Both the position numbers and the translations under genes were made by a program. Below, one piece after another: positions 1-43,675 of a stretch of 43,865 nt of DNA (position 1 is its first letter; the number at the start of each line of letters is the position of its first letter). Source of the DNA: a phage. The notes under the pieces are model-generated. The model saw only the letters and a program-made list of their open reading frames with translations. It did not search any database and had not been told where the DNA came from. The stretch lies in the NCBI GenBank assembly GCA_032298335.1, contig GCA_032298335.1_4702.1; one strand, given 5' to 3'.

Positions 1-18
1 TCACTCGCTCACGTGTAC

Positions 19-142
19 CTTAGGTTATTACTTGATGGATAGCTTAGGTTAACCTTAGTGGAACGCCTTAGTTAAAGACTTAGTGCTTATCTTAGTAACA
101 GCTTAGTAGTGTACCTTAGTTGGTCTTAGTGAATAGCCTTAG
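19..142. repeat. Periodic CTTAG(T/G) array, about 10 copies at roughly 12-bp spacing
   Basis: CTTAG begins at 19, 43, 54, 67, 79, 91, 102, 115, 125, 138; further copies at 320, 335, 354 and 459. Non-coding left-end region. Confidence 0.8.
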
Positions 143-340
143 TGATTGCACATGCAAGCATGTAAGATGCCAATAGGTCGCGGTCTGTAGACCGCTAAAG
201 AAAGAGAATAGTAATAAGATGCAGTAGGAGGAACACCAGAAGCCTAGCCAACCTAGCCTATCCTAGCTCTGTATCTATTGCTTTTCCTTAGTCTCACATG
301 TTAGACAACCTATATTATTCTTAGTGATGATAACTTAGTG

Positions 341-369
341 TTGACAAGATAATCTTAGTGTAATACCAT
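341..369 (+). promoter_or_regulatory. Candidate host sigma70 early promoter (TTGACA, 17-nt spacer, TACCAT)
   Basis: Perfect -35 hexamer TTGACA at 341-346; weak -10 TACCAT at 364-369; lies upstream of the first early ORFs. Confidence 0.3.
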
Positions 370-470
370 GCATCACGTAGGCGGTGCTGAGGCACCTAGT
401 AGCCAGCTAGTAAGGCATACGAAGAGACTAGCGCTTACATTGCTCTTTAACAATTTGCTTAGTGTAACCT

Positions 471-692
471 ATGTATGCCGTGGTTAATTACTTATTGAAT
501 GAGAGATTAACTATGACATTAAACAACCGTGAACTATCCGTTCTCTTCACTCTGTTGTGCTACATGATTCGTAAAAACGAATTGCTTACAGATGACGAGT
601 TAGCCTTGTATCACCGCTTTCTTAACGAAGGTTGGACCGATACAGTTAATCAATACCGTAACATGATAGATGAGTTGAGGGAGGGTAAATAA
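471..692 (+). CDS. Hypothetical early protein (73 aa)
   Basis: ORF in the early region; no recognisable motif; start codon uncertain (alternative ATG near 513). Confidence 0.45.
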   Translation: MYAVVNYLLNERLTMTLNNRELSVLFTLLCYMIRKNELLTDDELALYHRFLNEGWTDTVNQYRNMIDELREGK

Positions 693-916
693 TGTATCAG
701 CATGAGGTTTTCTTTGAGTCAGCTAGTGAAGCTATCCGCTTCCTTGAAGATATGCTACAAGCTGGCGTAGGTGTTGATGTACATCACTTCCTACTAGATT
801 ACGACACTGAATATCACCGAGTTACCTTAGTATCTGAGTATGACAACCAAGTCATTACTGAGTACCTAGGCAGTGAAGATTACGATTACGATGAAGTAAT
901 CACGACAAATCTCTAA
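692..916 (+). CDS. Hypothetical acidic early protein (74 aa)
   Basis: ATG overlaps the upstream stop (TAATG); GGAGGG ribosome-binding site 7 nt upstream. Confidence 0.5.
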   Translation: MYQHEVFFESASEAIRFLEDMLQAGVGVDVHHFLLDYDTEYHRVTLVSEYDNQVITEYLGSEDYDYDEVITTNL

Positions 917-1303
917 ATTAACTGTTGACAGCCACGGCATACAAGGTTACATTAAGCATCAAGACGGCGACGTCTTTAAACATCCCGCTCTTTAACAATA
1001 CGGTTTGTGTCTTGATAGGCTAACTAACTAAGGTAATTATCATGAAAGGTTTAATTTGTGTAGAACGTATGGTCAATGGTAAACTTGAAATATTACCACT
1101 GGAAAACCAATCTAGCTTCAAAGAGTGGTATGGCTGTTTCTCACTGATTTAAGGTAAAGGCTGGCACTAGTCAGCCTATCAAGGCGCAAACCAAGCTCTT
1201 TAACAATTTGGATGGTAGCTTCTTAGTCTGGATAGGTTAAACCTAGGGGATTCTCTTGAGTCTCCTATAATGTAACCTAACTAACTAAATGAGGATTAAT
1301 AAC

Positions 1304-1657
1304 ATGGCTATGTCTAATATGACTTACTCTCAGGTTTACAACACCGCTCATGCTGCATTAGTTGAACGTATCTGGAATGATGCTATTGATTGTATTGATA
1401 ACGCACATGATGCAATCCATGATGCGGCGGATAGTGCTGTACCAATCTATTATGCTGACATCTTCTCCGTGATGGCGAGTGAAGGAATTGATCATTTCTT
1501 CGAAGACTCCGGCCTGATGCCAGACACTAAGGATGTAACCGTAGTATTGCAAGCCCGTATCTATGAGCAACTCACAATTGATCTATGGGAACGTGTTCAG
1601 TATATGATTGTTGAATACGTCAACTCCGCCGAATATTTAGAAGAAGAAGAGGAATAA
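1304..1657 (+). CDS. ocr: Ocr-like anti-restriction DNA-mimic protein (T7 gp0.3 homolog)
   Basis: 117-aa acidic protein. Starts MAMSNMTY and contains [42 protein letters not shown] and [15 protein letters not shown] with an acidic C-terminus, matching T7 Ocr as I recall it. GAGGA ribosome-binding site before the ATG at 1304. Confidence 0.85.
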
Positions 1658-1659
1658 GA

Positions 1660-1773
1660 ATGGAAAAGCTATACAACTTCATCTTTTCAGACGGTGTAAC
1701 CCTGAAGTGTTCCCTGCGTTTCGCACAAATTCGTGAGGAAGCACTAGGCACTACATACAAACTATTTAGCTGA
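1660..1773 (+). CDS. Small hypothetical protein (37 aa)
   Basis: Short ORF directly after ocr; its stop lies inside a promoter-like element; weak support. Confidence 0.3.
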   Translation: MEKLYNFIFSDGVTLKCSLRFAQIREEALGTTYKLFS

Positions 1774-1788
1774 CACTATAAGAGAAGG
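1762..1788 (+). promoter_or_regulatory. Phage-promoter-like element with altered +1 (ATTTAGCTGACACTATAAGAG)
   Basis: Close to the SP6 consensus ATTTAGGTGACACTATAGAAG but TATAGAAG is replaced by TATAAGAG; upstream of the RNA polymerase gene. Confidence 0.3.
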
Positions 1789-1849
1789 CTTAACAAGGCG
1801 TTGCTACGGTAGCGCCTGATTAAACTTTCACTTACTAGGAGTTAAGACT

Positions 1850-2077
1850 ATGGATTTAGATAGCATCATTATGGCATTTGCTCTTATTGGCTTAAGCTGG
1901 TGCTCCTATCACCTTTACCGTGAGTTCTTATTTGATAAAGCTAAACGCAAACTAAGAAAAGAAGGCGGCAATTACCTTTGTGTAAGAGGTGGGCTTGTAG
2001 AATACATTGCACCTAACGGCACGGAATGCGCCATTAGCAAAGATGCATTTATAGAAACGTGGCATTACATCAAGTAA
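1850..2077 (+). CDS. Hypothetical small membrane protein (75 aa)
   Basis: N-terminal hydrophobic segment IIMAFALIGLSWCSY; AGGAG ribosome-binding site upstream. Confidence 0.5.
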   Translation: MDLDSIIMAFALIGLSWCSYHLYREFLFDKAKRKLRKEGGNYLCVRGGLVEYIAPNGTECAISKDAFIETWHYIK

Positions 2078-2140
2078 CTAGCCTATAGCCTACCTGAGTG
2101 GGTTATGTGATATTTACTTACACTATATAAGGTGACTATT

Positions 2141-3064
2141 ATGACTACTGAAAACATCCTCCTGTCTGTCCGTGAAGCTGCAACCGCTGAGATTAAGCAG
2201 CATTTGGATAATATCGGCACTTCTTACATCAAAGTTGGCGCTTGTCTGAATGAATTACGCGGTGATTTCGAAGGTCAAAAAGACTTTTTAGCTTATGTAG
2301 AATCAGAGTTCGGCATCAAGAAAGCACAATGCTACAAGCTGATGAGTGTAGCCCGTGTCTTTGAAGGAGACGAACGCTTTAAAGGTGTGGCTATGCGTGT
2401 AATGCTGGCGCTTGTTCCTTTCGCTGATGAAAATATAATCATGGAGAAGGCCGCAGAACTCGCCGCAGAGGGCAAGCTGGACACTAACGCCGTAAACGCC
2501 CTGATTGATCCTAAGAAAGAGACAAAGGCCGAGACGGTACAATCTAAGGTTGAGTCGGTAAAACCGCAGGAGAACGCGACTGAGGCCGCAGAAACTATGC
2601 AAGGACATGCAACCTTTGAGGATTTCATCTTAGAGAAGGCGAAAGAGGATTTACAAAGTGTGCCGCCAGTAAGTGAGTCGGGTAACGACGAATCCGCACC
2701 GTGGGAAGATGAAAGCAAGCCGGAAGACACAAAGGCAGCGCCACGGGATAACACGGCTAATACTGAGAATGCCGCTATTGCTGGTCTGCTGGCACAAATT
2801 AAAGCACTGACTGAGCAATTACAGGCAGCTAATGGCCGCATTGCCTCCTTAAGCAGCGCACGCGAAAGCAAGAAAGCAGCCGCGCCTATGCTGCCGCAAT
2901 TCAAATCTTCCTGCTTCTATGCTCGCTTAGGTTTAAGCGCTGAGGAGGCAACGAAGAAAACAGCAGTTAACAAGGCACGCCGCGAACTGGTTAAGCTAGG
3001 CTACGGCGAAGGCCATGAAGCATGGCCCTTAATCTCTGAGGCAGTAGAAGAATTAACTAAGTAA
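2141..3064 (+). CDS. Hypothetical early protein (307 aa)
   Basis: Long early ORF at the position T7 uses for the gp0.7 kinase, but no kinase motifs seen; ribosome-binding site AAGGTGA before the ATG at 2141 (the ORF track starts at a GTG at 2132). Confidence 0.6.
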   Translation: MTTENILLSVREAATAEIKQHLDNIGTSYIKVGACLNELRGDFEGQKDFLAYVESEFGIKKAQCYKLMSVARVFEGDERFKGVAMRVMLALVPFADENIIMEKAAELAAEGKLDTNAVNALIDPKKETKAETVQSKVESVKPQENATEAAETMQGHATFEDFILEKAKEDLQSVPPVSESGNDESAPWEDESKPEDTKAAPRDNTANTENAAIAGLLAQIKALTEQLQAANGRIASLSSARESKKAAAPMLPQFKSSCFYARLGLSAEEATKKTAVNKARRELVKLGYGEGHEAWPLISEAVEELTK

Positions 3065-3127
3065 CCTTATCGGTGGCATCTTCTTAGGTGTCACCTATTA
3101 AGGTTTCTTTCACTAGGAGTAAACAAG

Positions 3128-5755
3128 ATGCAAGACCTACACGCTATTCAACTTCAACTTGAAGAAGAAATGTTTAACGGCGGTATCCGTCGCTTTGAAG
3201 CGGACCAACAACGCCAGATTGCATCCGGTAATGAATCAGACACGGCATGGAATCGCCGCTTATTGTCCGAGTTAATCGCGCCAATGGCTGAAGGTATTCA
3301 GGCATACAAGGAAGAGTATGAAGGTAAAAGAGGCCGTGCACCGCGTGCATTAGCTTTCATTAACTGCGTAGAAAATGAAGTGGCAGCGTATATCACGATG
3401 AAAATCGTTATGGATATGCTGAACACGGATGTAACCTTGCAGGCTATAGCCATGAATGTAGCTGACCGCATTGAGGACCAAGTACGTTTTAGCAAGCTGG
3501 AAGGTCACGCCGCCAAATACTTTGAAAAAGTTAAGAAGTCACTTAAGGCAAGTAAGACTAAATCATATCGCCATGCGCACAACGTAGCGGTAGTGGCTGA
3601 GAAGTCAGTAGCTGACCGTGACGCTGATTTCTCTCGCTGGGAAGCGTGGCCTAAAGATACCTTGCTACAAATTGGGATGACCTTGCTTGAAATCTTAGAG
3701 AATAGCGTATTCTTCAACGGGCAACCTGTCTTCCTCCGCACCTTGCGCACTAATGGCGGAAAACATGGTGTTTACTACCTACAGACTAGTGAACACGTAG
3801 GTGAGTGGATAACTGCATTTAAAGAACATGTAGCGCAACTTAGTCCCGCCTATGCACCTTGCGTTATTCCTCCGCGTCCGTGGGTGTCACCCTTTAACGG
3901 TGGGTTTCATACTGAGAAAGTAGCAAGCCGTATTCGTCTGGTAAAAGGCAATCGTGAGCACGTCCGCAAGCTGACCAAAAAGCAAATGCCAGCGGTTTAC
4001 AAGGCTGTTAACGCTTTGCAGGTGACTAAGTGGCAGGTTAATAAAGAGGTTTTACAGGTTGTGGAGGACGTTATACGTCTAGACCTCGGCTATGGTGTAC
4101 CTTCCTTTAAACCACTCATCGACCGTGAGAACAAGCCAGCTAATCCGGTGCCGTTAGAGTTCCAGCACCTGCGAGGCCGTGAACTGAAAGAAATGCTTAC
4201 GCCGGAACAATGGCAAGCCTTTATCAACTGGAAAGGTGAATGTACTAAGCTGTACACCGCTGAAACTAAGCGCGGAAGCAAATCGGCGGCAACCGTTCAC
4301 ATGGTTGGTCAGGCCCGTAAATATAGCCAGTTCGACGCAATCTACTTCGTGTATGCACTGGACAGCCGCAGCCGTGTATACGCGCAATCTAGCACACTCT
4401 CACCGCAATCAAATGACTTGGGCAAGGCCTTGCTCCGTTTTACCGAAGGGCAGCGTCTTGATAGCGCTGAGGCGCTTAAGTGGTTTTTGGTGAACGGGGC
4501 TAATAACTGGGGTTGGGATAAGAAAACTTTTGACGTGCGCACTGCTAACGTGCTGGATAGTGAATTTCAAGACATGTGCCGCGACATTGCAGCGGATCCG
4601 CTGACCTTCACTCAATGGGTAAATGCCGACTCCCCTTACGGCTTCCTTGCATGGTGCTTTGAATATGCGCGTTATCTGGATGCACTGGATGAAGGCACGC
4701 AAGACCAATTCATGACGCACCTCCCAGTCCATCAAGATGGTAGTTGTTCTGGTATCCAGCACTACAGTGCTATGCTACGCGATGCAGTAGGTGCGAAAGC
4801 AGTAAACCTTAAGCCCTCTGACTCTCCTCAAGATATTTATGGTGCCGTTGCGCAGGTAGTAATTCAGAAGAATTATGCATACATGAATGCAGAGGGTGCG
4901 GAAACCTTCACTTCTGGCAGCGTGACTTTAACAGGTGCGGAACTGCGTAGTATGGCTAGTGCGTGGGATATGATAGGAATCACTCGCGGCCTGACCAAAA
5001 AGCCCGTAATGACACTACCTTATGGCAGCACACGTCTAACCTGCCGTGAGTCAGTGATTGATTATATCGTTGATTTAGAAGAAAAAGAGGCCCAACGGGC
5101 TATTGCGGAAGGGCGTACCGCCAATCCTGTACACCCTTTTGACAATGACCGTAAGGACAGCCTGACACCTAGCGCAGCTTATAACTATATGACAGCTTTA
5201 ATCTGGCCTTCTATTTCGGAAGTGGTTAAAGCTCCTATAGTGGCAATGAAAATGATTCGTCAGCTTGCACGTTTCGCAGCTAAAAGGAATGAAGGCTTAG
5301 AGTACACCTTGCCTACTGGCTTCATCTTGCAACAAAAGATAATGGCGACAGATATGCTCCGCGTATCTACTTGCTTGATGGGAGAAATCAAGATGAGTCT
5401 ACAGATTGAAACGGACGTAGTGGATGAAACGGCTATGATGGGCGCTGCTGCCCCTAACTTTGTGCACGGTCATGATGCCAGTCACCTTATCTTAACGGTC
5501 TGCGACCTTGTTGATAAAGGGATTACATCTATCGCAGTAATTCATGATTCTTTTGGCACTCATGCAGGTCGCACCGCAGACCTACGTGATAGTCTAAGGG
5601 CAGAAATGGTGAAGATGTATCAAGGCCGTAACGCTCTGCAAAGCCTGTTAGATGAGCATGAAGAACGCTGGTTAGTAGACACCGGAATCCAAGTGCCAAA
5701 GCAAGGAGAGTTTGACCTTAACGAAATCTTAGTATCTGACTATTGCTTCGCATAA
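3128..5755 (+). CDS. Single-subunit DNA-directed RNA polymerase, SP6-type
   Basis: 875 aa. Begins [32 protein letters not shown] and contains [33 protein letters not shown] and IHDSFGTHA, near-identical to SP6 RNA polymerase as recalled; T7 RNAP-family catalytic motifs present. Confidence 0.97.
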
Positions 5756-5763
5756 TATTAATA

Positions 5764-5795
5764 GGCCATTCCTTCGGGAGTGGCCTTTTCTTTTT
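5764..5795 (+). terminator. Intrinsic terminator after the RNA polymerase gene
   Basis: 9-bp stem GGCCATTCC / GGAGTGGCC (one G-U pair) with a TTCG tetraloop, followed by TTTTCTTTTT. Confidence 0.75.
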
Positions 5796-5829
5796 ACCTA
5801 CTACCGGTAACATTTCATTAACATAAAGT

Positions 5830-5845
5830 GTCTCACATGTGAGAC
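5830..5845. repeat. 16-bp perfect palindrome GTCTCACATGTGAGAC (copy 1)
   Basis: Exact self-complementary 16-mer immediately upstream of a promoter variant. Confidence 0.9.
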
Positions 5846-5847
5846 TT

Positions 5848-5868
5848 ATTTACCGGACACTATAGGAT
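5848..5868 (+). promoter_or_regulatory. Phage RNA polymerase promoter variant (ATTTACCGGACACTATAGGAT)
   Basis: Matches the window consensus ATTTACTGGACACTATAGAAG except at -11 and +3/+4. Confidence 0.6.
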
Positions 5869-5916
5869 AGCCGTCGGAGACGGGAAAGAAAGGGAAGATA
5901 AAGGATATAAAAGGAA

Positions 5917-5963
5917 GTAATAGGTATTAAAGGTTATATAGGTTATCTAGGAATACCTATTAC
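5917..5963. repeat. 12-bp perfect inverted repeat flanking a 23-bp AT-rich spacer
   Basis: GTAATAGGTATT at 5917-5928 and its reverse complement AATACCTATTAC at 5952-5963, inside an AT-rich non-coding stretch between two promoters. Confidence 0.8.
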
Positions 5964-6011
5964 CTTCTTCCTTCCTCTTATTACTACTTAGAGGAAGGGC
6001 AGATCTAGGTT

Positions 6012-6027
6012 GTCTCACATGTGAGAC
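6012..6027. repeat. 16-bp perfect palindrome GTCTCACATGTGAGAC (copy 2)
   Basis: Exact repeat of the palindrome at 5830, again directly upstream of a promoter variant. Confidence 0.9.
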
Positions 6028-6032
6028 TTCGT

Positions 6033-6053
6033 ATTTACCGGACAGTATAGATA
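6033..6053 (+). promoter_or_regulatory. Phage RNA polymerase promoter variant (ATTTACCGGACAGTATAGATA)
   Basis: Promoter-like sequence with C to G at -5 and a changed +3; upstream of the gp1.1-like and primase genes. Confidence 0.5.
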
Positions 6054-6079
6054 AGACTAACTTACTTTGGGATTTAACC

Positions 6080-6208
6080 ATGCGTAACTTTGAGAAGATG
6101 ACCCGTAAAGCTAACCGCTTTGACATGGAAGAAGGGCAGAAGAAAGGCAAGAAGCTGAATAAACCTGTCCGTGACCGTGCATCTAAACGCGCTGCGTGGG
6201 AGTTCTAA
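6080..6208 (+). CDS. Small basic protein, T7 gp1.1-like (42 aa)
   Basis: Begins MRNFEKM and ends WEF; lysine/arginine-rich; sits directly downstream of the RNA polymerase gene as T7 gene 1.1 does. Similarity is from memory. Confidence 0.6.
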   Translation: MRNFEKMTRKANRFDMEEGQKKGKKLNKPVRDRASKRAAWEF

Positions 6209-6211
6209 ATT

Positions 6212-8200
6212 ATGGCTATTATTCAGAATGTACCGTGTCCTGCCTGTCAAAAGAATGGACATGATATTACTGGCAACCATCTTATGATATTTGAGGATGG
6301 CGCTGGTTACTGTAACCGTGGTCACTTCCATGATAATGGGAAGCCTTATTACCATAAGCCAGAGGGTGGTATCGAGATAACCGAATTGCCTATTACTGGC
6401 AATATCAAATATACACCTTCTCAATTCAAAGAAATGGAGAAGGAAGGGAAGATAAGCGACCCTAAGCTACGCGCCATCGCACTTGGTGGTATGCGTATGA
6501 AAGACCGTTGGGAGGTTATGAATGAGCAAGAAAGGGCAGACCAAGAAGCAGAGTGGAAACTTGATGTTGAATGGTTCCTCACGCTTAAGCGTAAGAACCT
6601 TGTATCCCGTCACATTCGAGGTGACATCGCAGCAATGTACGATGTGCGCGTTGGACACGATGAAGAGGGAAGAGTCAACCGTCACTATTATCCACGATAT
6701 GAAAAGGGTGTGCTTGTTGGAGCAAAATGCCGGACGTTGCCGAAGGATTTTAAGTTCGGACACCTAGGTAAACTCTTTGGTATGCAAGATCTTTTCGGTA
6801 TGAATACTTTGTCTCACGTGTTAGACAAGGGGAGGCGAAAGGATTGCTTGCTTATTGTAGGCGGTGAACTTGATGCACTAGCAGCGCAGCAGATGCTCCT
6901 TGATTCTGCCAAGGGTACTAAGTGGGAAGGACAACCATATCATGTGTGGTCTGTCAACAAGGGCGAGTCTTGCCTTGAAGAGATAGTGCAGAACCGTGAG
7001 CATATCGCCCAATTCAAGAAGATTATATGGGGTTTTGATGGAGATGAGGTAGGGCAGAAGCAGAATCAGCAAGCGGCTCGCCTGTTTCCTGGCAAATCCT
7101 ATATCCTTGAATACCCCTCTGGTTGCAAAGATGCTAACAAGGCATTGATGGCTGGCAAGGCCAAAGAGTTTGTTGATGCATGGTTTAATGCCAAGTCATC
7201 TGATGAAGTCTTTGGTAGCCAGATTAAATCTATCGCATCTCAAAGGGATAAGCTCAAGGCTGCACGTCCAGAGCAAGGACTATCATGGCCTTGGCCTAAG
7301 CTGAACAAGGTAACGCTAGGTATTCGTAAGAACCAACTTATCATTGTAGGCGCAGGCTCTGGTGTAGGTAAGACTGAGTTCCTTCGTGAAGTAGTTAAGC
7401 ACCTCATTGAAGAACACGGTGAATCTGTAGGCATCATTTCTACAGAAGACCCGATGGTCAAGGTGTCCCGTGCTTTTATCGGCAAGTGGATTGATAAGCG
7501 TATTGAGTTACCGCCAACCAACGACCCTAAAGAAGACGGATACCGTGAGGTGTTCGACTACACCGAGGAAGAAGCTAACGCCGCCATTGATTATGTAGCT
7601 GATACAGGTAAGCTGTTTGTAGCTGACCTAGAGGGTGACTATTCGATGGAAAAGGTAGAGCAAACTTGCCTAGAGTTTGAGGCTATGGGCATTTCTAATA
7701 TCATCATTGATAACTTAACGGGGATTAAATTAGATGAGCGTGCTTTTGGTGGGAAGGTTGGTGCACTTGATGAATGCGTCAAGCGGATTGGTACTATCAA
7801 AGACCGACACCCGGTTACTATATTCCTTGTATCACACCTTACACGTCCTCCGGCAAACCGTACCCAACACGAAGAAGGTGGCGAAGTTATCCTTTCTGAC
7901 TTCCGAGGCTCAGGCGCTATCGGATTCTGGGCATCTTACGCCTTGGGGATTGAGCGTAATACAAGAGCTGAAACGCTTGACGAAAGGACTACCACGTACA
8001 TCTCTTGTGTCAAAGACCGCGACCAAGGAATATTTTCCGGTACTCGTATAATGCTTAAAGGTGATATTGCTACTGGTCGATTACGTGAACCAGAGCAAAG
8101 ATCTCGACCGTTTGATACTGGTGCTCCAAAAGAACAAACTGTACCAGAAGAAGTAGTGGATAAAGGAGGATTTATTGCTGACGAAGTTGAAGAGTTTTGA
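6212..8200 (+). CDS. Bifunctional DNA primase/helicase (T7 gp4-like)
   Basis: N-terminal zinc-ribbon CPACQ...CNRGHFH; Walker A GAGSGVGKTEF; helicase motifs IIIDNLTG and VSHLTRPPANRTQHEEGGEVILSDFRGSGAIG paralleling T7 gp4; acidic C-terminus ending EEF. Confidence 0.95.
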   Translation: MAIIQNVPCPACQKNGHDITGNHLMIFEDGAGYCNRGHFHDNGKPYYHKPEGGIEITELPITGNIKYTPSQFKEMEKEGKISDPKLRAIALGGMRMKDRWEVMNEQERADQEAEWKLDVEWFLTLKRKNLVSRHIRGDIAAMYDVRVGHDEEGRVNRHYYPRYEKGVLVGAKCRTLPKDFKFGHLGKLFGMQDLFGMNTLSHVLDKGRRKDCLLIVGGELDALAAQQMLLDSAKGTKWEGQPYHVWSVNKGESCLEEIVQNREHIAQFKKIIWGFDGDEVGQKQNQQAARLFPGKSYILEYPSGCKDANKALMAGKAKEFVDAWFNAKSSDEVFGSQIKSIASQRDKLKAARPEQGLSWPWPKLNKVTLGIRKNQLIIVGAGSGVGKTEFLREVVKHLIEEHGESVGIISTEDPMVKVSRAFIGKWIDKRIELPPTNDPKEDGYREVFDYTEEEANAAIDYVADTGKLFVADLEGDYSMEKVEQTCLEFEAMGISNIIIDNLTGIKLDERAFGGKVGALDECVKRIGTIKDRHPVTIFLVSHLTRPPANRTQHEEGGEVILSDFRGSGAIGFWASYALGIERNTRAETLDERTTTYISCVKDRDQGIFSGTRIMLKGDIATGRLREPEQRSRPFDTGAPKEQTVPEEVVDKGGFIADEVEEF

Positions 8201-17495: not shown

Positions 17496-17579
17496 AAGGG
17501 CTAGGTAAGACTTTATCGGCTGGCGTATCCAAATGATATTGCACTAGCCCTTGATTGTATAGTGAATGGAGGATTCAAT

Positions 17580-18083
17580 ATGTCACACTATGAATGTAAG
17601 AAGTGTCATAAGTGTTATGATTACTGTACTTGTGGTCAAGAGAAAACATCTTTTAAAGTCGGAGACAAGGTATTTCGTAATGAAAAAGATTCTATTCCTT
17701 GGAATCAATTCTGCAAAGAAGCTGGTATTGACCCTGATAGCCCTGTAACCATAGATGATATTGATGGCATTAACTTGTGCTTTCGTGAGGTGAGGGGTAC
17801 AGGTTGGGATTCCAAAAAATTCAAACTTGCATCTGATAAGTTAGACAACAATATGGTAACTCAGCCTAAGCACTACGAGTTCTTTGATGGTGTAGAGGCA
17901 ATCACTATCATTGCCCGCAGTATGACTGAAAAGCAATTCGCTGGGTACTGCATGGGTAATGCCCTTAAGTATCGCCTGCGTGCAGGTAAGAAGTTCAATA
18001 CTGAAGAAGACTTGAAGAAGGCAGACTATTATAAAGAGTTATTCCAGAAGCATCGTCACGAATGTATTGATGAGGATATTTAA
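17580..18083 (+). CDS. Hypothetical Cys-rich protein (167 aa)
   Basis: N-terminal cluster CKKCHKCYDYCTCG; C-terminal conserved-looking block GNALKYRLRAGKK; GGAGGA ribosome-binding site before the ATG at 17580. Confidence 0.6.
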   Translation: MSHYECKKCHKCYDYCTCGQEKTSFKVGDKVFRNEKDSIPWNQFCKEAGIDPDSPVTIDDIDGINLCFREVRGTGWDSKKFKLASDKLDNNMVTQPKHYEFFDGVEAITIIARSMTEKQFAGYCMGNALKYRLRAGKKFNTEEDLKKADYYKELFQKHRHECIDEDI

Positions 18084-39248: not shown

Positions 39249-39329
39249 AGATAAGATAGCGCCGTTCTTTTGAGCGGCCTATTACTAGCCAATCTTCATA
39301 GGGAGGGTTGGAAAGTAATAGGAGATAGT

Positions 39330-41228
39330 ATGGCTAAATTAACCAAACCTAATACTGAAGGAATCTTGCATAAAGGACAATCTTTGTATGAGTACCTTGA
39401 TGCGAGAGTTTTAACATCAAAGCCGTTTGGTGCTGCAGGTGACGCCACTACTGATGATACGGAGGTTATAGCTGCTTCATTAAACTCTCAGAAAGCTGTC
39501 ACAGTCTCAGACGGTGTATTCTCTAGCTCTGGTATTAATAGTAATTACTGTAACTTAGACGGTAGGGGTAGTGGCGTGCTAAGTCACCGTTCCAGTACAG
39601 GTAACTACTTAGTATTTAACAATCTACGTGCAGGTCGCTTAAGTAATATTACGGTAGAAAGTAATAAGGCGACTGATACAACTCAGGGACAGCAGGTATC
39701 TCTTGCTGGTGGAAGTGATGTTACTGTAAGTGACGTTAACTTCTCAAACGTTAAAGGTACTGGTTTCAGTTTAATCGCATACCCTAATGATGCGCCACCT
39801 GATGGACTTATGATTAAAGGCATTCGAGGTCGCTATTCCGGCTATGCTACTAATAAGGCAGCTGGATGCGTACTTGCTGACTCCTCAGTTAACTCCCTCA
39901 TAGATAACGTCATTGCTAAGAACTACCCTCAGTTTGGAGCAGTAGAGTTGAAAGGTACAGCCAGTTACAACATAGTCAGTAATGTTATAGGGGCAGATTG
40001 CCAGCATGTAACTTACAACGGCACTGAAGGGCCAATAGCTCCTTCTAATAACCTTATCAATGGGGTAGTGGCTAATAATCCTAAGTATGCAGCGGTTGTT
40101 GCAGGCAAAGGTAGTACGAACTTAATATCAGATGTGCTCGTAGATTACTCAACCTCTGATGCTAGGCAGGCTCATGGTGTTACAGTAGAGGGGTCTGATA
40201 ACGTCATAAATAATGTGCTTATGTCAGGATGTGATGGTACTAACTCTTTAGGACAAAGGCAGACTGCTACAATTGCACGCTTTATAGGTACAGCTAATAA
40301 CAACTATGCGTCTGTATTTCCTAGCTACAGTGCTACAGGTGTTATTACTTTCGAATCCGGCTCTACCCGTAACTTCGTAGAGGTAAAGCACCCTGGCAGG
40401 AGAAACGACCTTCTCAGTTCTGCTAGCACTATTGACGGTGCAGCTACTATTGACGGCACTAATAATAGTAACGTAGTGCACGCACCTGCCTTAGGGCAGT
40501 ACATAGGTAGTATGTCAGGTAGGTTCGAATGGCGGATTAAGTCCATGTCACTCCCTTCAGGCGTTCTTACTTCTAATGATAAGTACAGAATGCTTGGGGA
40601 TGGTGCTGTATCATTAGCTTTAGGTGGGGGTACTTCTTCTCAAGTTCGCCTATTTACTTCTGATGGTACTTCTCGTACAGTGTCCCTCACCAAAGGTAAC
40701 GTGCGTCTTTCTACCAGTAGCACAGGCTATTTGCAGTTAGGTGCTGATGCAATGACCCCAGATAGTACTGGTACATACGCATTAGGTTCCGCCAGTCGAG
40801 CATGGTCTGGAGGTTTTACTCAAGCAGCATTCACTGTTACATCAGATGCTCGGTGTAAAACAGAACCTCTTACTATCTCAGATGCCTTACTGGATGCTTG
40901 GTCTGAAGTTGACTTTGTGCAGTTTCAGTATTTGGATCGTGTTGAGGAGAAGGGTGCAGACTCAGCTAGATGGCACTTCGGTATCATCGCTCAGCGAGCT
41001 AAGGAGGCTTTCGAACGCCACGGTATAGATGCACATCGCTATGGCTTCTTGTGCTTCGACAGTTGGGATGATGTATACGAGGAAGATGCCAATGGCTCTC
41101 GTAAACTGATTACACCAGCAGGTTCACGCTACGGTATTCGTTACGAGGAAGTACTGATATTAGAGGCTGCGTTGATGCGGAGGACTATCAAGCGTATGCA
41201 GGAAGCACTAGCTTCCCTGCCTAAGTGA
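39330..41228 (+). CDS. Tailspike 1 with C-terminal intramolecular chaperone domain
   Basis: 632 aa; beta-helix-like repeats rich in Gly/Ser/Thr/Asn; the C-terminal roughly 130 aa (TSDAR ... GIIAQRAKEAF ... RYGIRYEEVLILEAALM) resemble the self-cleaving chaperone domain of endosialidase and K5-lyase tailspikes. Confidence 0.85.
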   Translation: MAKLTKPNTEGILHKGQSLYEYLDARVLTSKPFGAAGDATTDDTEVIAASLNSQKAVTVSDGVFSSSGINSNYCNLDGRGSGVLSHRSSTGNYLVFNNLRAGRLSNITVESNKATDTTQGQQVSLAGGSDVTVSDVNFSNVKGTGFSLIAYPNDAPPDGLMIKGIRGRYSGYATNKAAGCVLADSSVNSLIDNVIAKNYPQFGAVELKGTASYNIVSNVIGADCQHVTYNGTEGPIAPSNNLINGVVANNPKYAAVVAGKGSTNLISDVLVDYSTSDARQAHGVTVEGSDNVINNVLMSGCDGTNSLGQRQTATIARFIGTANNNYASVFPSYSATGVITFESGSTRNFVEVKHPGRRNDLLSSASTIDGAATIDGTNNSNVVHAPALGQYIGSMSGRFEWRIKSMSLPSGVLTSNDKYRMLGDGAVSLALGGGTSSQVRLFTSDGTSRTVSLTKGNVRLSTSSTGYLQLGADAMTPDSTGTYALGSASRAWSGGFTQAAFTVTSDARCKTEPLTISDALLDAWSEVDFVQFQYLDRVEEKGADSARWHFGIIAQRAKEAFERHGIDAHRYGFLCFDSWDDVYEEDANGSRKLITPAGSRYGIRYEEVLILEAALMRRTIKRMQEALASLPK

Positions 41229-41313: not shown

Positions 41314-43026
41314 ATGCTTCAAAGATTAAGTGCTTACTTGGTGAAGTACAAGAGTAAACTAACAGGTACTATTGAGCGCCTGCTATCTGATAAACTATCG
41401 GATACAATAGATGTTGCGGATTTTGGAGTTACTCCATCTTCCAATGACAACAGGCAAGCACTTCAAGCTGCGTTCAATGCAGTCAGAGTGTTAGGCGGTG
41501 GCACTGTATTAGTCACTAAAGCTGGAAAATACAAACTCAGTGGTACTGTTGAGATATTTGCTAATACACACTTCAAGGTTGCTAAAGGTGTAACATTTGT
41601 ACGTGACTACGAAACAGGAGATACGCTATTCAGATTATCACAAGGGCAAGCTAGTAATGTAACAGTCAGTGGAGGTATCTATGAAGGCAATGGTCACACT
41701 AAGGGAGATACACCTTTTGTAGTATTTGCATCTACTAGTAATAATGATTTGAAGTTTGAAGGCATAACAGTTAACAATGTAGTGGACTACCACGCCATAG
41801 ATTTAGCAGATTGGAACAACGTAGTTATTCGTGATTGTAAATTCCTAGGTTTTAAGAATACAGGCAGTCGTAACTTCTCAGAGGCTATACAGTTAGACCC
41901 AGGTCTTATTACAGTTGGTCACTATGTACAGTCAAGTGGTATGCTGGTGGAGAATTGCTATGCTGGTCCAAACACAGAATCAGGGTTTGGAGGTTATGGT
42001 GCACTAATTGGAAATCACGCCTCAGCTTACGGTGTACAGGACAACAATATCCGTATCTTGAATTGCACTACAGATGGTGCTCTCTTTGCAGGTGTACGTG
42101 TATTTAACTGGAAAAACTGGACAGTGCGTGGTTGCACATTTAGGAACTCTAATGCAAGAGGTGTCCATGTTACACCTGTCTCATCTCAGACTAAACCGCA
42201 GGGTACTCGACAAGGTAGTATTGTAGATTGCACTTTTGATGGCGTAAGGACACCAGTGCTAATTGCTGCACCATCTTGGCCTTTTACTGATATTAGTGAC
42301 ATTTGGCATGACCATATTGAAATTTCTAATAATACTATGATCCTCACAGAGGATGCATCCTATGGTGTAGATGCAAGGTGGTGTAAGAATTTAATTGTAA
42401 AAGGTAATACAGGCTCTGGCGGCTTAGGTTTAATCGGTTTACGCTTTGGGACAAAATACCACATCGAAGGTAATACTTGGGAGAACGGAAGAGGTAGTGG
42501 GATTTGGTTAGGTGAGTCTGATGCTACTACATTCATTGGTACTGGATTATCGGGCGAAGGTGTACTTAGTCGTAATATCCTCTCTAAATTAGGGCAATAT
42601 GGTATTCATGTAAACTGCAAGGTTGGCGGTCTAGTGATTAAGGCTAATAATATGAAGGAAGTATCTACAGCTGAAGCAGGTATGCACTTCATTAGCATAG
42701 ACACAGGAGCTAACAACATCCTAGTAGAGGGTAATATTGGAGTAGATGGAGAAAGCCCTAACAAGCCAAGCCTTGGTATTCGTGTTACTTCTTCTTGTTC
42801 CAATATTAAACTCATTGGCAATGATTGCTATGGTACACAGGCGCCTCAGAATAACCAAGGAGTTGGTTCTAGTACGGTGATTGTTTATGGACTAAATGGC
42901 AACCCTACAACTTTAGGCGTAGGTGCACCTGTAGGCTCTTTAGCAACTGATATCAATGGTTCTGGTGGTAGTACATTGTACGTTAAAGAATCTGGTACAT
43001 CTGCTCAAGGTTGGGTTGCAAAGTAG
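41314..43026 (+). CDS. Tailspike 2, right-handed beta-helix (pectate-lyase-like) putative depolymerase
   Basis: 570 aa; N-terminal VADFGVTPSSNDNRQALQAAFNAV ... GGGTVLV typical of pectate-lyase-fold tailspikes; repeated beta-helix rungs; no T7 gp17-like tail-attachment domain. Confidence 0.8.
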   Translation: MLQRLSAYLVKYKSKLTGTIERLLSDKLSDTIDVADFGVTPSSNDNRQALQAAFNAVRVLGGGTVLVTKAGKYKLSGTVEIFANTHFKVAKGVTFVRDYETGDTLFRLSQGQASNVTVSGGIYEGNGHTKGDTPFVVFASTSNNDLKFEGITVNNVVDYHAIDLADWNNVVIRDCKFLGFKNTGSRNFSEAIQLDPGLITVGHYVQSSGMLVENCYAGPNTESGFGGYGALIGNHASAYGVQDNNIRILNCTTDGALFAGVRVFNWKNWTVRGCTFRNSNARGVHVTPVSSQTKPQGTRQGSIVDCTFDGVRTPVLIAAPSWPFTDISDIWHDHIEISNNTMILTEDASYGVDARWCKNLIVKGNTGSGGLGLIGLRFGTKYHIEGNTWENGRGSGIWLGESDATTFIGTGLSGEGVLSRNILSKLGQYGIHVNCKVGGLVIKANNMKEVSTAEAGMHFISIDTGANNILVEGNIGVDGESPNKPSLGIRVTSSCSNIKLIGNDCYGTQAPQNNQGVGSSTVIVYGLNGNPTTLGVGAPVGSLATDINGSGGSTLYVKESGTSAQGWVAK

Positions 43027-43213: not shown

Positions 43214-43675
43214 ATGGAAGTTTGGAGGCCTATTGCTGGTATACCAGATTACATGGTTTCCTCCTTTGGTCGTGTTAGATCTCATAAAAGAGGTAAGGTT
43301 ACTATACTAAACCCTCCGCACGACAAAGGGGGTTATCGTAATGTTGTGCTACGTGTTAATGGTGAAAAGATAAATCGCAAGGTACATAGGCTTGTGGCAG
43401 AGGCTTTCTTACCTAATCCTCACGGTTTACCTCAAGTAAATCACAAGGATGAAGTAAGAGACAATAATCATGTAAGTAATCTGGAGTGGTGTGATTGTGC
43501 ATACAACGTAGATTACTCTCAAGCAGCTACTTATACTGTGATGTGCCCTAAAGGTAATATCTTAGTAGTAAGGAATGTGGCTAAGTTTTGTAGGGAAAAC
43601 GGATTAAGCAGTGGTTCTTTTACAGATATGCTTAAGGGGAGACGTAAGCAACATAAGGGTTATCGCTTAGTGTAA
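43214..43675 (+). CDS. HNH homing endonuclease (second copy)
   Basis: HRLVAEAF ... NP ... PQVNHKD ... NLEW HNH motif; C-terminal FCRENGL ... KG(R)RKQHKG block shared with the 8175-8663 protein; AT-rich. Confidence 0.85.
   Translation: MEVWRPIAGIPDYMVSSFGRVRSHKRGKVTILNPPHDKGGYRNVVLRVNGEKINRKVHRLVAEAFLPNPHGLPQVNHKDEVRDNNHVSNLEWCDCAYNVDYSQAATYTVMCPKGNILVVRNVAKFCRENGLSSGSFTDMLKGRRKQHKGYRLV

Follow-up and report, generated by a model that had tools for sequence, protein, structure and literature searches.

A predicted Ocr DNA mimic in an SP6-like Vectrevirus phage is most probably a standard early gene of its group, exchanged as a two-allele cassette

The DNA analyzed here, termed the window, is a phage contig of 43,865 nucleotides (GenBank assembly GCA_032298335.1, contig GCA_032298335.1_4702.1). 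Near its left end it harbors an open reading frame at 1304..1657 on the plus strand, which an earlier note made from the letters of the sequence had claimed as a T7-type ocr gene. The reading frame was found intact, with an ATG at 1304, a TAA stop codon at 1655-1657 and a product of 117 aa, and was classified as an ocr coding sequence of the T7/SP6-type allele by homology and by an identical annotated gene. The Shine-Dalgarno sequence GAGGA was read from the sequence at 1291..1295 (+), 8 nt 5′ of the start codon. An in-frame ATG at 1289, which would give an ORF of 122 aa, was rejected as the start on account of the Shine-Dalgarno spacing and the N-termini of the homologues. The N-terminus MAMSNMTY is common to the Ocr homologues of T7, SP6 and KY435490.1, and in phage 6948 the identical annotated CDS begins at the position equivalent to 1304, so this start is preferred. 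The 3′ side of ocr is adjoined by a conserved gene for 37 aa (1660..1773, +; PHROG 11746), which forms the right flank of the ocr cassette. This gene was compared with T7 gp0.4 as a sign of a larger shared module and showed no similarity. The locus hence differs from that of T7 in its unrelated 3′ neighbor, and also in that ocr is not the first ORF, as three small ORFs lie 5′ of it in the window.

Judged by its sequence, the product of 1304-1657 is a member of the Ocr family, and the gene is a genuine, undisrupted one for this anti-restriction DNA mimic of phages. A phmmer search against the PDB matched T7 Ocr (PDB 1S7Z, 1s7z_A) with residues 1-117 aligned to 1-117 (E=8.3e-41). The Pfam family PF08684 (ocr) was matched with 142.2 bits against a cut-off of 25 (E=8.5e-42), spanning residues 3-99 of the protein and 1-97 of the 101 profile positions, and PHROG 2568, labeled ‘ocr-like anti-restriction’, was matched with E=2.8e-46. 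BLASTP against T7 gp0.3 gave 73% over residues 1-96 (E=1e-46), and the similarity as a whole goes far beyond chance. Over the full 117 aa the identity to T7 Ocr amounts to 66%; it is highest in residues 46-96 (88%), falls to 56% in the N-terminal 45 residues and is lowest in the tail (33%). The four peptide blocks quoted in the earlier note (51 residues) recur without any change in the window protein and in T7 Ocr, where they occupy the same positions 1, 49, 66 and 82. With 66% full-length identity to a protein of known crystal structure, the family assignment can be regarded as settled.

Two other types of anti-restriction protein were considered. In T3-like phages, the SAM hydrolase gp0.3 is the alternative anti-restriction gene at the same locus; this type was ruled out, as ocr is the sole Pfam family matched. 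Membership in the ArdA family was likewise ruled out, there being no Pfam match besides PF08684 at E<=0.01. ArdA proteins of plasmids and transposons are acidic dimers that mimic DNA and block type I enzymes (PMC2731889), and they share the DNA-mimic strategy with Ocr as an unrelated family. Among the closest known systems is T7 gp0.3 (PDB 1S7Z; complexes 2Y7C, 7BST/7BTP, 6R9B and 8Q56), which the window protein resembles in its length of 117 aa, in being colinear over its full length, in its acidic composition, in F54 and D73 and in the four identical blocks. An AlphaFold2 single-sequence model was all-helical with low confidence (pLDDT 51.5, pTM 0.31); the elongated all-helical fold of 1S7Z is predicted for the window protein from the 66% identity.

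The likeness to T7 extends to the location in the early region behind a similar RNA hairpin. Directly 5′ of ocr, a long irregular hairpin (1219..1294, +; -32.6 kcal/mol, z=-3.3) reaches with its 3′ arm into the Shine-Dalgarno sequence, and a hairpin of the same build is found 5′ of T7 gene 0.3 (z=-2.4). The element in the window may, like R0.3 of T7, be a site processed by RNase III. When the whole window was scanned with Rfam at gathering thresholds there was no match, so the hairpin belongs to no curated family. On the 5′ side of the hairpin lies the motif GCTCTTTAACAAT (1195..1207, +), which also precedes ocr in conserved form in T7, SP6 and vB_EcoP_C; the form of the non-coding motif common to T7, SP6 and Vectrevirus is GCTCTTTAACAAT(C/T)TGG. 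Exact copies of GCTCTTTAACAAT occur in the window at 442-454, 987-999 and 1195-1207, i.e. three against 0.1 expected, and each is situated ahead of an early gene start. RNase III may process the RNA at these sites as in T7; the folds around the copies at 442 and 987 were no better than those of shuffled sequences.

Two sigma-70-like candidate early promoters precede the gene, one at 341..369 (+; TTGACA, 17 nt spacer, TACCAT) and one nearer to ocr at 925..953 (+; TTGACA, 17 nt spacer, TACATT). Both agree with the consensus in 10 of 12 positions, and both are consensus matches only, the regional total of which is not above shuffle expectation. The left end itself (1-360) carries dense short repeats of the type CTTAGT / CCTTAG(T/G), ahead of the first promoter-like site; a direct terminal repeat is not present within the window. 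The first phage-type, SP6-like promoter-like sequence, ATTTAGCTGACACTATAAGAG, is located downstream of ocr at 1764..1784 (+) and shows 3 mismatches to the SP6 consensus. Phage promoters are marked by ten matches to ATTTACTGGACACTATAGAAG. Apart from 1764..1784, the phage-promoter matches lie at 5848 and beyond, and no such match was found upstream of ocr. Since ocr lies 1.3 kb from the left end and upstream of all phage-type promoter matches, the host RNA polymerase would presumably transcribe it, starting at the leftmost promoters, as soon as this DNA end has entered the cell.

The genome contains four EcoKI, five EcoBI, three EcoAI and five EcoR124I sites, counts near expectation except for EcoR124I (5 against 10.7 expected). 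These type I sites are not avoided, and as the first site for any of the four enzymes is at 6700, Ocr could be produced ahead of the entry of all of them. The E. coli HS BREX motif, GGTAAG, has 41 copies in the genome against 22 expected, with zero copies in 1-7366 and the first at 7367. The lack of GGTAAG in the first 7.3 kb and of type I sites before 6700 are post-hoc observations which may be due to composition or chance.

On the basis of its sequence, the phage is a Vectrevirus of the K1-5/K1E group and belongs to the SP6-like Molineuxvirinae within the Autographiviridae. The SP6-like backbone asserted in the earlier note was confirmed, the RNA polymerase being 85% identical to that of SP6 and 32-34% identical to that of T7, and so was the gene order, which is collinear with that of SP6 over the entire window. 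Backbone proteins are mostly 63-92% identical to their SP6 counterparts, with lower values of 39-42% for the internal virion proteins. Those shared with T7, such as the polymerases, portal and terminase, are 25-35% identical to it; the backbone, with a protein identity of only about 33%, is thus a further difference from T7. The first 6 kb of the window show 94-97% nucleotide identity to many Vectrevirus genomes.

That a T7-type Ocr is something unusual in an SP6-type genome is not supported, as ocr is present in the same early position in SP6, in K1-5 and in all the close relatives that were examined, among them about 70 Vectrevirus-sized records with the gene at the same locus. Proteins identical to that of the window are deposited as ‘protein Ocr’ in the phages 6948, EC120 and Sem1-4, and the identical protein is also present in Vectrevirus LI10P5; in all of these the locus and the flanks are the same, with no difference of substance. 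The Ocr of ‘K1E’ record KY435490.1 is 91-93% identical, again with the same locus and flanks. In a search covering 50,697 phage records, the window-type allele was found in 46 records with 88-100% identity, all of them Vectrevirus-sized (43.7-46 kb). [quoted passage not shown] RefSeq labels both SP6 gene 3 and K1-5 gene 3 as ‘ocr-like anti-restriction’. A 2026 paper describes this very protein as conserved among Vectrevirus phages (PMC13005862), a 2024 preprint reports Ocr-like proteins in related isolates, and Scholl et al. (2004), as quoted in PMC4837284, suggested that owing to its homologue SP6 can grow on Salmonella whether or not the type I systems of this host are present. The ocr gene of the window is therefore already known and published, with annotations in dozens of K1-5/K1E/SP6-like phages; its identification is correct and ordinary, and the notion of a T7 gene in an SP6 backbone is overstated, since Ocr is a standard gene of the SP6-like group.

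Within Vectrevirus, ocr is a swappable cassette with borders precise to the ORF. Compared with K1-5 (AY370674), the window shows 98-100% nucleotide identity up to about position 1288 and 92-97% in three blocks from about 1649 on, while 1289-1648, corresponding to 1575-1907 in K1-5, is only 30-67% identical, the divergence being confined to the ocr ORF. Two alleles thus replace each other exactly at the ORF, namely the T7/SP6-type present in the window and a K1-5-type that is near the ocr of Kayfunavirus CLB_P1. The K1-5-type allele was detected at an identity of at least 90% in about 24 Vectrevirus-sized records, against about 46 for the window type. K1-5 gp3 shares 85-86% identity with the Ocr proteins of CLB_P1 and of Klebsiella, Salmonella and Enterobacter phages of about 38-40 kb, and the allele of vB_EcoP_C, 96% identical to K1-5 gp3, is about 45% identical to the window protein. 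K1-5 gene 3 and gp3 of the original K1E (AM084415) share with the window gene the genus, the locus, the Pfam ocr type and the conserved central block, and differ from it by the N-terminus MERNANAYY... and a shorter tail. As SP6 has the same MAMSNMTY-type allele, it may well be that the K1-5 allele has replaced a resident allele of the window type. That the two alleles are kept by host defenses which sense or resist Ocr, for example systems like PARIS or variants of type I and BREX enzymes, is a doubtful proposal, and any adaptive meaning is speculation; if it were true, the spectrum of inhibition and detection of the window allele should be measurably unlike those of T7 Ocr and of the K1-5 allele.

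According to published work, T7 Ocr forms an acidic homodimer resembling about 24 bp of bent B-DNA; it binds type I enzymes tighter than DNA does, inhibits BREX and is sensed by PARIS. By homology, the acidic 117-aa product of the window would form an elongated dimer imitating bent B-form DNA. It contains 24 Asp/Glu and 4 Lys/Arg residues, as compared with 34 and 6 in T7 Ocr, and has a net charge of -20 instead of -28. Twenty-two of the 34 acidic positions of T7 are kept and two further acids are gained, leaving the window protein with 10 fewer acids than T7 Ocr; the losses concern the N-terminal helix and loop 1, E64 and the C-terminal tail. In the numbering of the mutagenesis papers, the 12 lost acids are D12, E16, D26, D29, D32, E64, D96, E98, D99, E106, E107 and E110. 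Three of the six acids of the loop-1 region are affected (D26, D29, D32), and in loop 2 E64 is changed to Phe. The block of aa 59-91 with loop 2 and D73, which is critical in T7 Ocr and imitates the bent spacer in type I target sites (PMC3439906), retains seven of its eight acids (E59, D62, E66, D67, D73, D76 and E87), E64 being the only one lost. All other losses fall within the Mut1, Mut2 or Mut4 segments or the C-terminal tail, and T7 Ocr stays active when these segments are neutralized or the tail is deleted (Ocr99; PMC3439906). About 14-16 Asp/Glu per monomer are required for Ocr activity (PMC4872106), a threshold that the 24 acids of the window protein exceed. F54, required for dimerization of T7 Ocr and mutated in PARIS escapers (PMC9122126), is invariant across six aligned Ocr homologues, and the whole 49-63 block is identical to T7. 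The window protein most likely blocks type I restriction-modification and would probably block BREX as well, presumably at the BREX methyltransferase. As F54 is kept, Ocr-sensing abortive-infection systems such as PARIS should be able to detect it. The prediction of the earlier note that the phage resists type I restriction-modification, and perhaps BREX, is reasonable from homology, the critical features being kept.

Taking these results together, we consider it very likely that the ocr gene of this SP6-like Vectrevirus encodes an early-made acidic DNA mimic, that it is a standard gene of its group and not a recent import from T7, and that it exists as a cassette with two alleles. Its function could be questioned by proposing that the window carries a diverged, charge-depleted allele whose anti-restriction activity is altered or lost and which serves another role, for example BREX inhibition only, binding of host RNA polymerase only or escape from Ocr sensors. 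Such a proposal could point to the 12 of 34 acidic positions of T7 that are gone, to the reduced net charge and to the combination of losses in Mut1, Mut2, Mut4, the tail and E64, as combined mutants of T7 Ocr are partly defective in some activities and Mut7 is only ‘nearly normal’ (PMC3439906). That genomes otherwise nearly identical carry either one allele or the other also hints at functional differences. However, the number of acids still lies above the required level, the central block retains seven of eight acids including D73, F54 is kept, residues 46-96 match T7 at 88%, and the allele is intact in 46 genomes, which makes an altered or lost activity quite improbable. A different question is the origin of the gene, for which the earlier note had suggested a mosaic early region. 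It was right in so far as ocr is discordant with the backbone and swapped as a cassette within Vectrevirus; a recent import from T7 is not indicated, and the gene does not support calling the phage a T7/SP6 mosaic. An SP6-type phage that newly acquired ocr from a T7-like phage, as a distinguishing feature of this genome, would account for the fact that no other window protein resembles T7 as closely as Ocr does (71% over 100 aa, with 25-35% in backbone proteins), for the 51 residues in four blocks identical to T7 and for a blastn similarity to T7 that is restricted to the ocr ORF. Against it stands the presence of ocr at the same locus in SP6, K1-5 and all close relatives examined, together with a hairpin and motif upstream that are common to T7, SP6 and Vectrevirus. 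Moreover, the best match in any T7-like phage is about 62-73%, with T7 itself at 62-66% and other T7-like phages reaching about 70% over part of the length, which leaves a gap below the 88-100% of the 46 Vectrevirus-sized records, with no donor-like sequence among the 50,697 phage records. At 4-fold synonymous sites the window and T7 ocr genes are 36% identical (n=25), equal to the saturated level of 31-45% in backbone genes; as these sites are saturated in ocr (36-52%) and backbone (30-50%) alike, even between the window and SP6, the test excludes only a recent transfer. The distant best match and the saturated synonymous sites give no sign of a recent acquisition from T7, and we regard this origin as extremely unlikely.

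An older history without any horizontal exchange of the window allele, i.e. purely vertical inheritance from a common ancestor of T7-like and SP6-like phages under strong selection, has more in its favor. In T7, SP6 and Vectrevirus alike, ocr sits in the early region, after the left-end promoters and before the gene for RNA polymerase, with a conserved motif and hairpin upstream. SP6, an outgroup in the same subfamily, shares the MAMSNMTY-type allele, and the saturation of synonymous sites implies that the divergence is old. The pairwise identities of Ocr, 76% for T7-SP6, 66% for window-T7 and 61% for window-SP6, nevertheless contradict the backbone tree ((window, SP6), T7), in which the window and SP6 share about 85% and either shares about 33% with T7. 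A single relative rate for ocr is excluded, because the gene diverges faster than the backbone within the subfamily (61% against 85%) yet is twice as conserved across subfamilies (66% against 33%). Ocr also tolerates heavy mutation (PMC3439906), which argues against extreme constraint, and a cassette replacement at the ocr locus is directly seen in K1-5. Vertical descent alone is rather unlikely.

The direct significance of the gene is small, since the phage, like its relatives, carries a standard counter-defense gene. It could be useful for host-range prediction in phage therapy, where the phage would likely be insensitive to type I restriction and to BREX, and likely be sensitive to systems of the PARIS type. 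The exchange of ocr across subfamilies of the Autographiviridae and its swapping as a precise cassette within the genus are of modest evolutionary interest; discordance and allele swap are a modest observation and not a new kind of system. Natural pairs of ocr alleles in near-isogenic backgrounds provide material for testing what shapes anti-restriction proteins.

Some further observations were made along the window. Two small genes encode proteins with similarity to T7, a gp1.1-like protein of 42 aa at 6080-6208 (56% identity to T7, Pfam Phage_1_1) and, at 17562-18083, a gp1.7-like nucleotide kinase (DUF3310), the C-terminal part of which is 64% identical to T7 over 73 aa. Both are far closer to T7 than the backbone is, which suggests that other small genes have been exchanged across subfamilies. 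In comparison with K1-5, a second cassette-like replacement is found at 1829-2122 (ORF 1850-2077, 75 aa, PHROG 21597), with 40-58% identity between flanks of 93-97%. A divergent patch with an indel lies at 2543-2722 (23-78% identity, gapped) within ORF 2132-3064 (310 aa, PHROG 4571), an early gene that is otherwise 88-97% identical. Two tailspike-like genes without an SP6 counterpart occupy 39270-41228 and 41314-43026, one with a Peptidase_S74 intramolecular-chaperone domain and the other with a right-handed beta-helix, and an HNH/NUMOD4 homing-endonuclease-like ORF is located near the right end at 43214-43675. Finally, two records named K1E differ in their ocr gene, KY435490.1 being of the window type (92.7%) and AM084415.1/NC_007637.1 of the K1-5 type (96% to K1-5 gp3), so that the name K1E alone does not identify the ocr allele.
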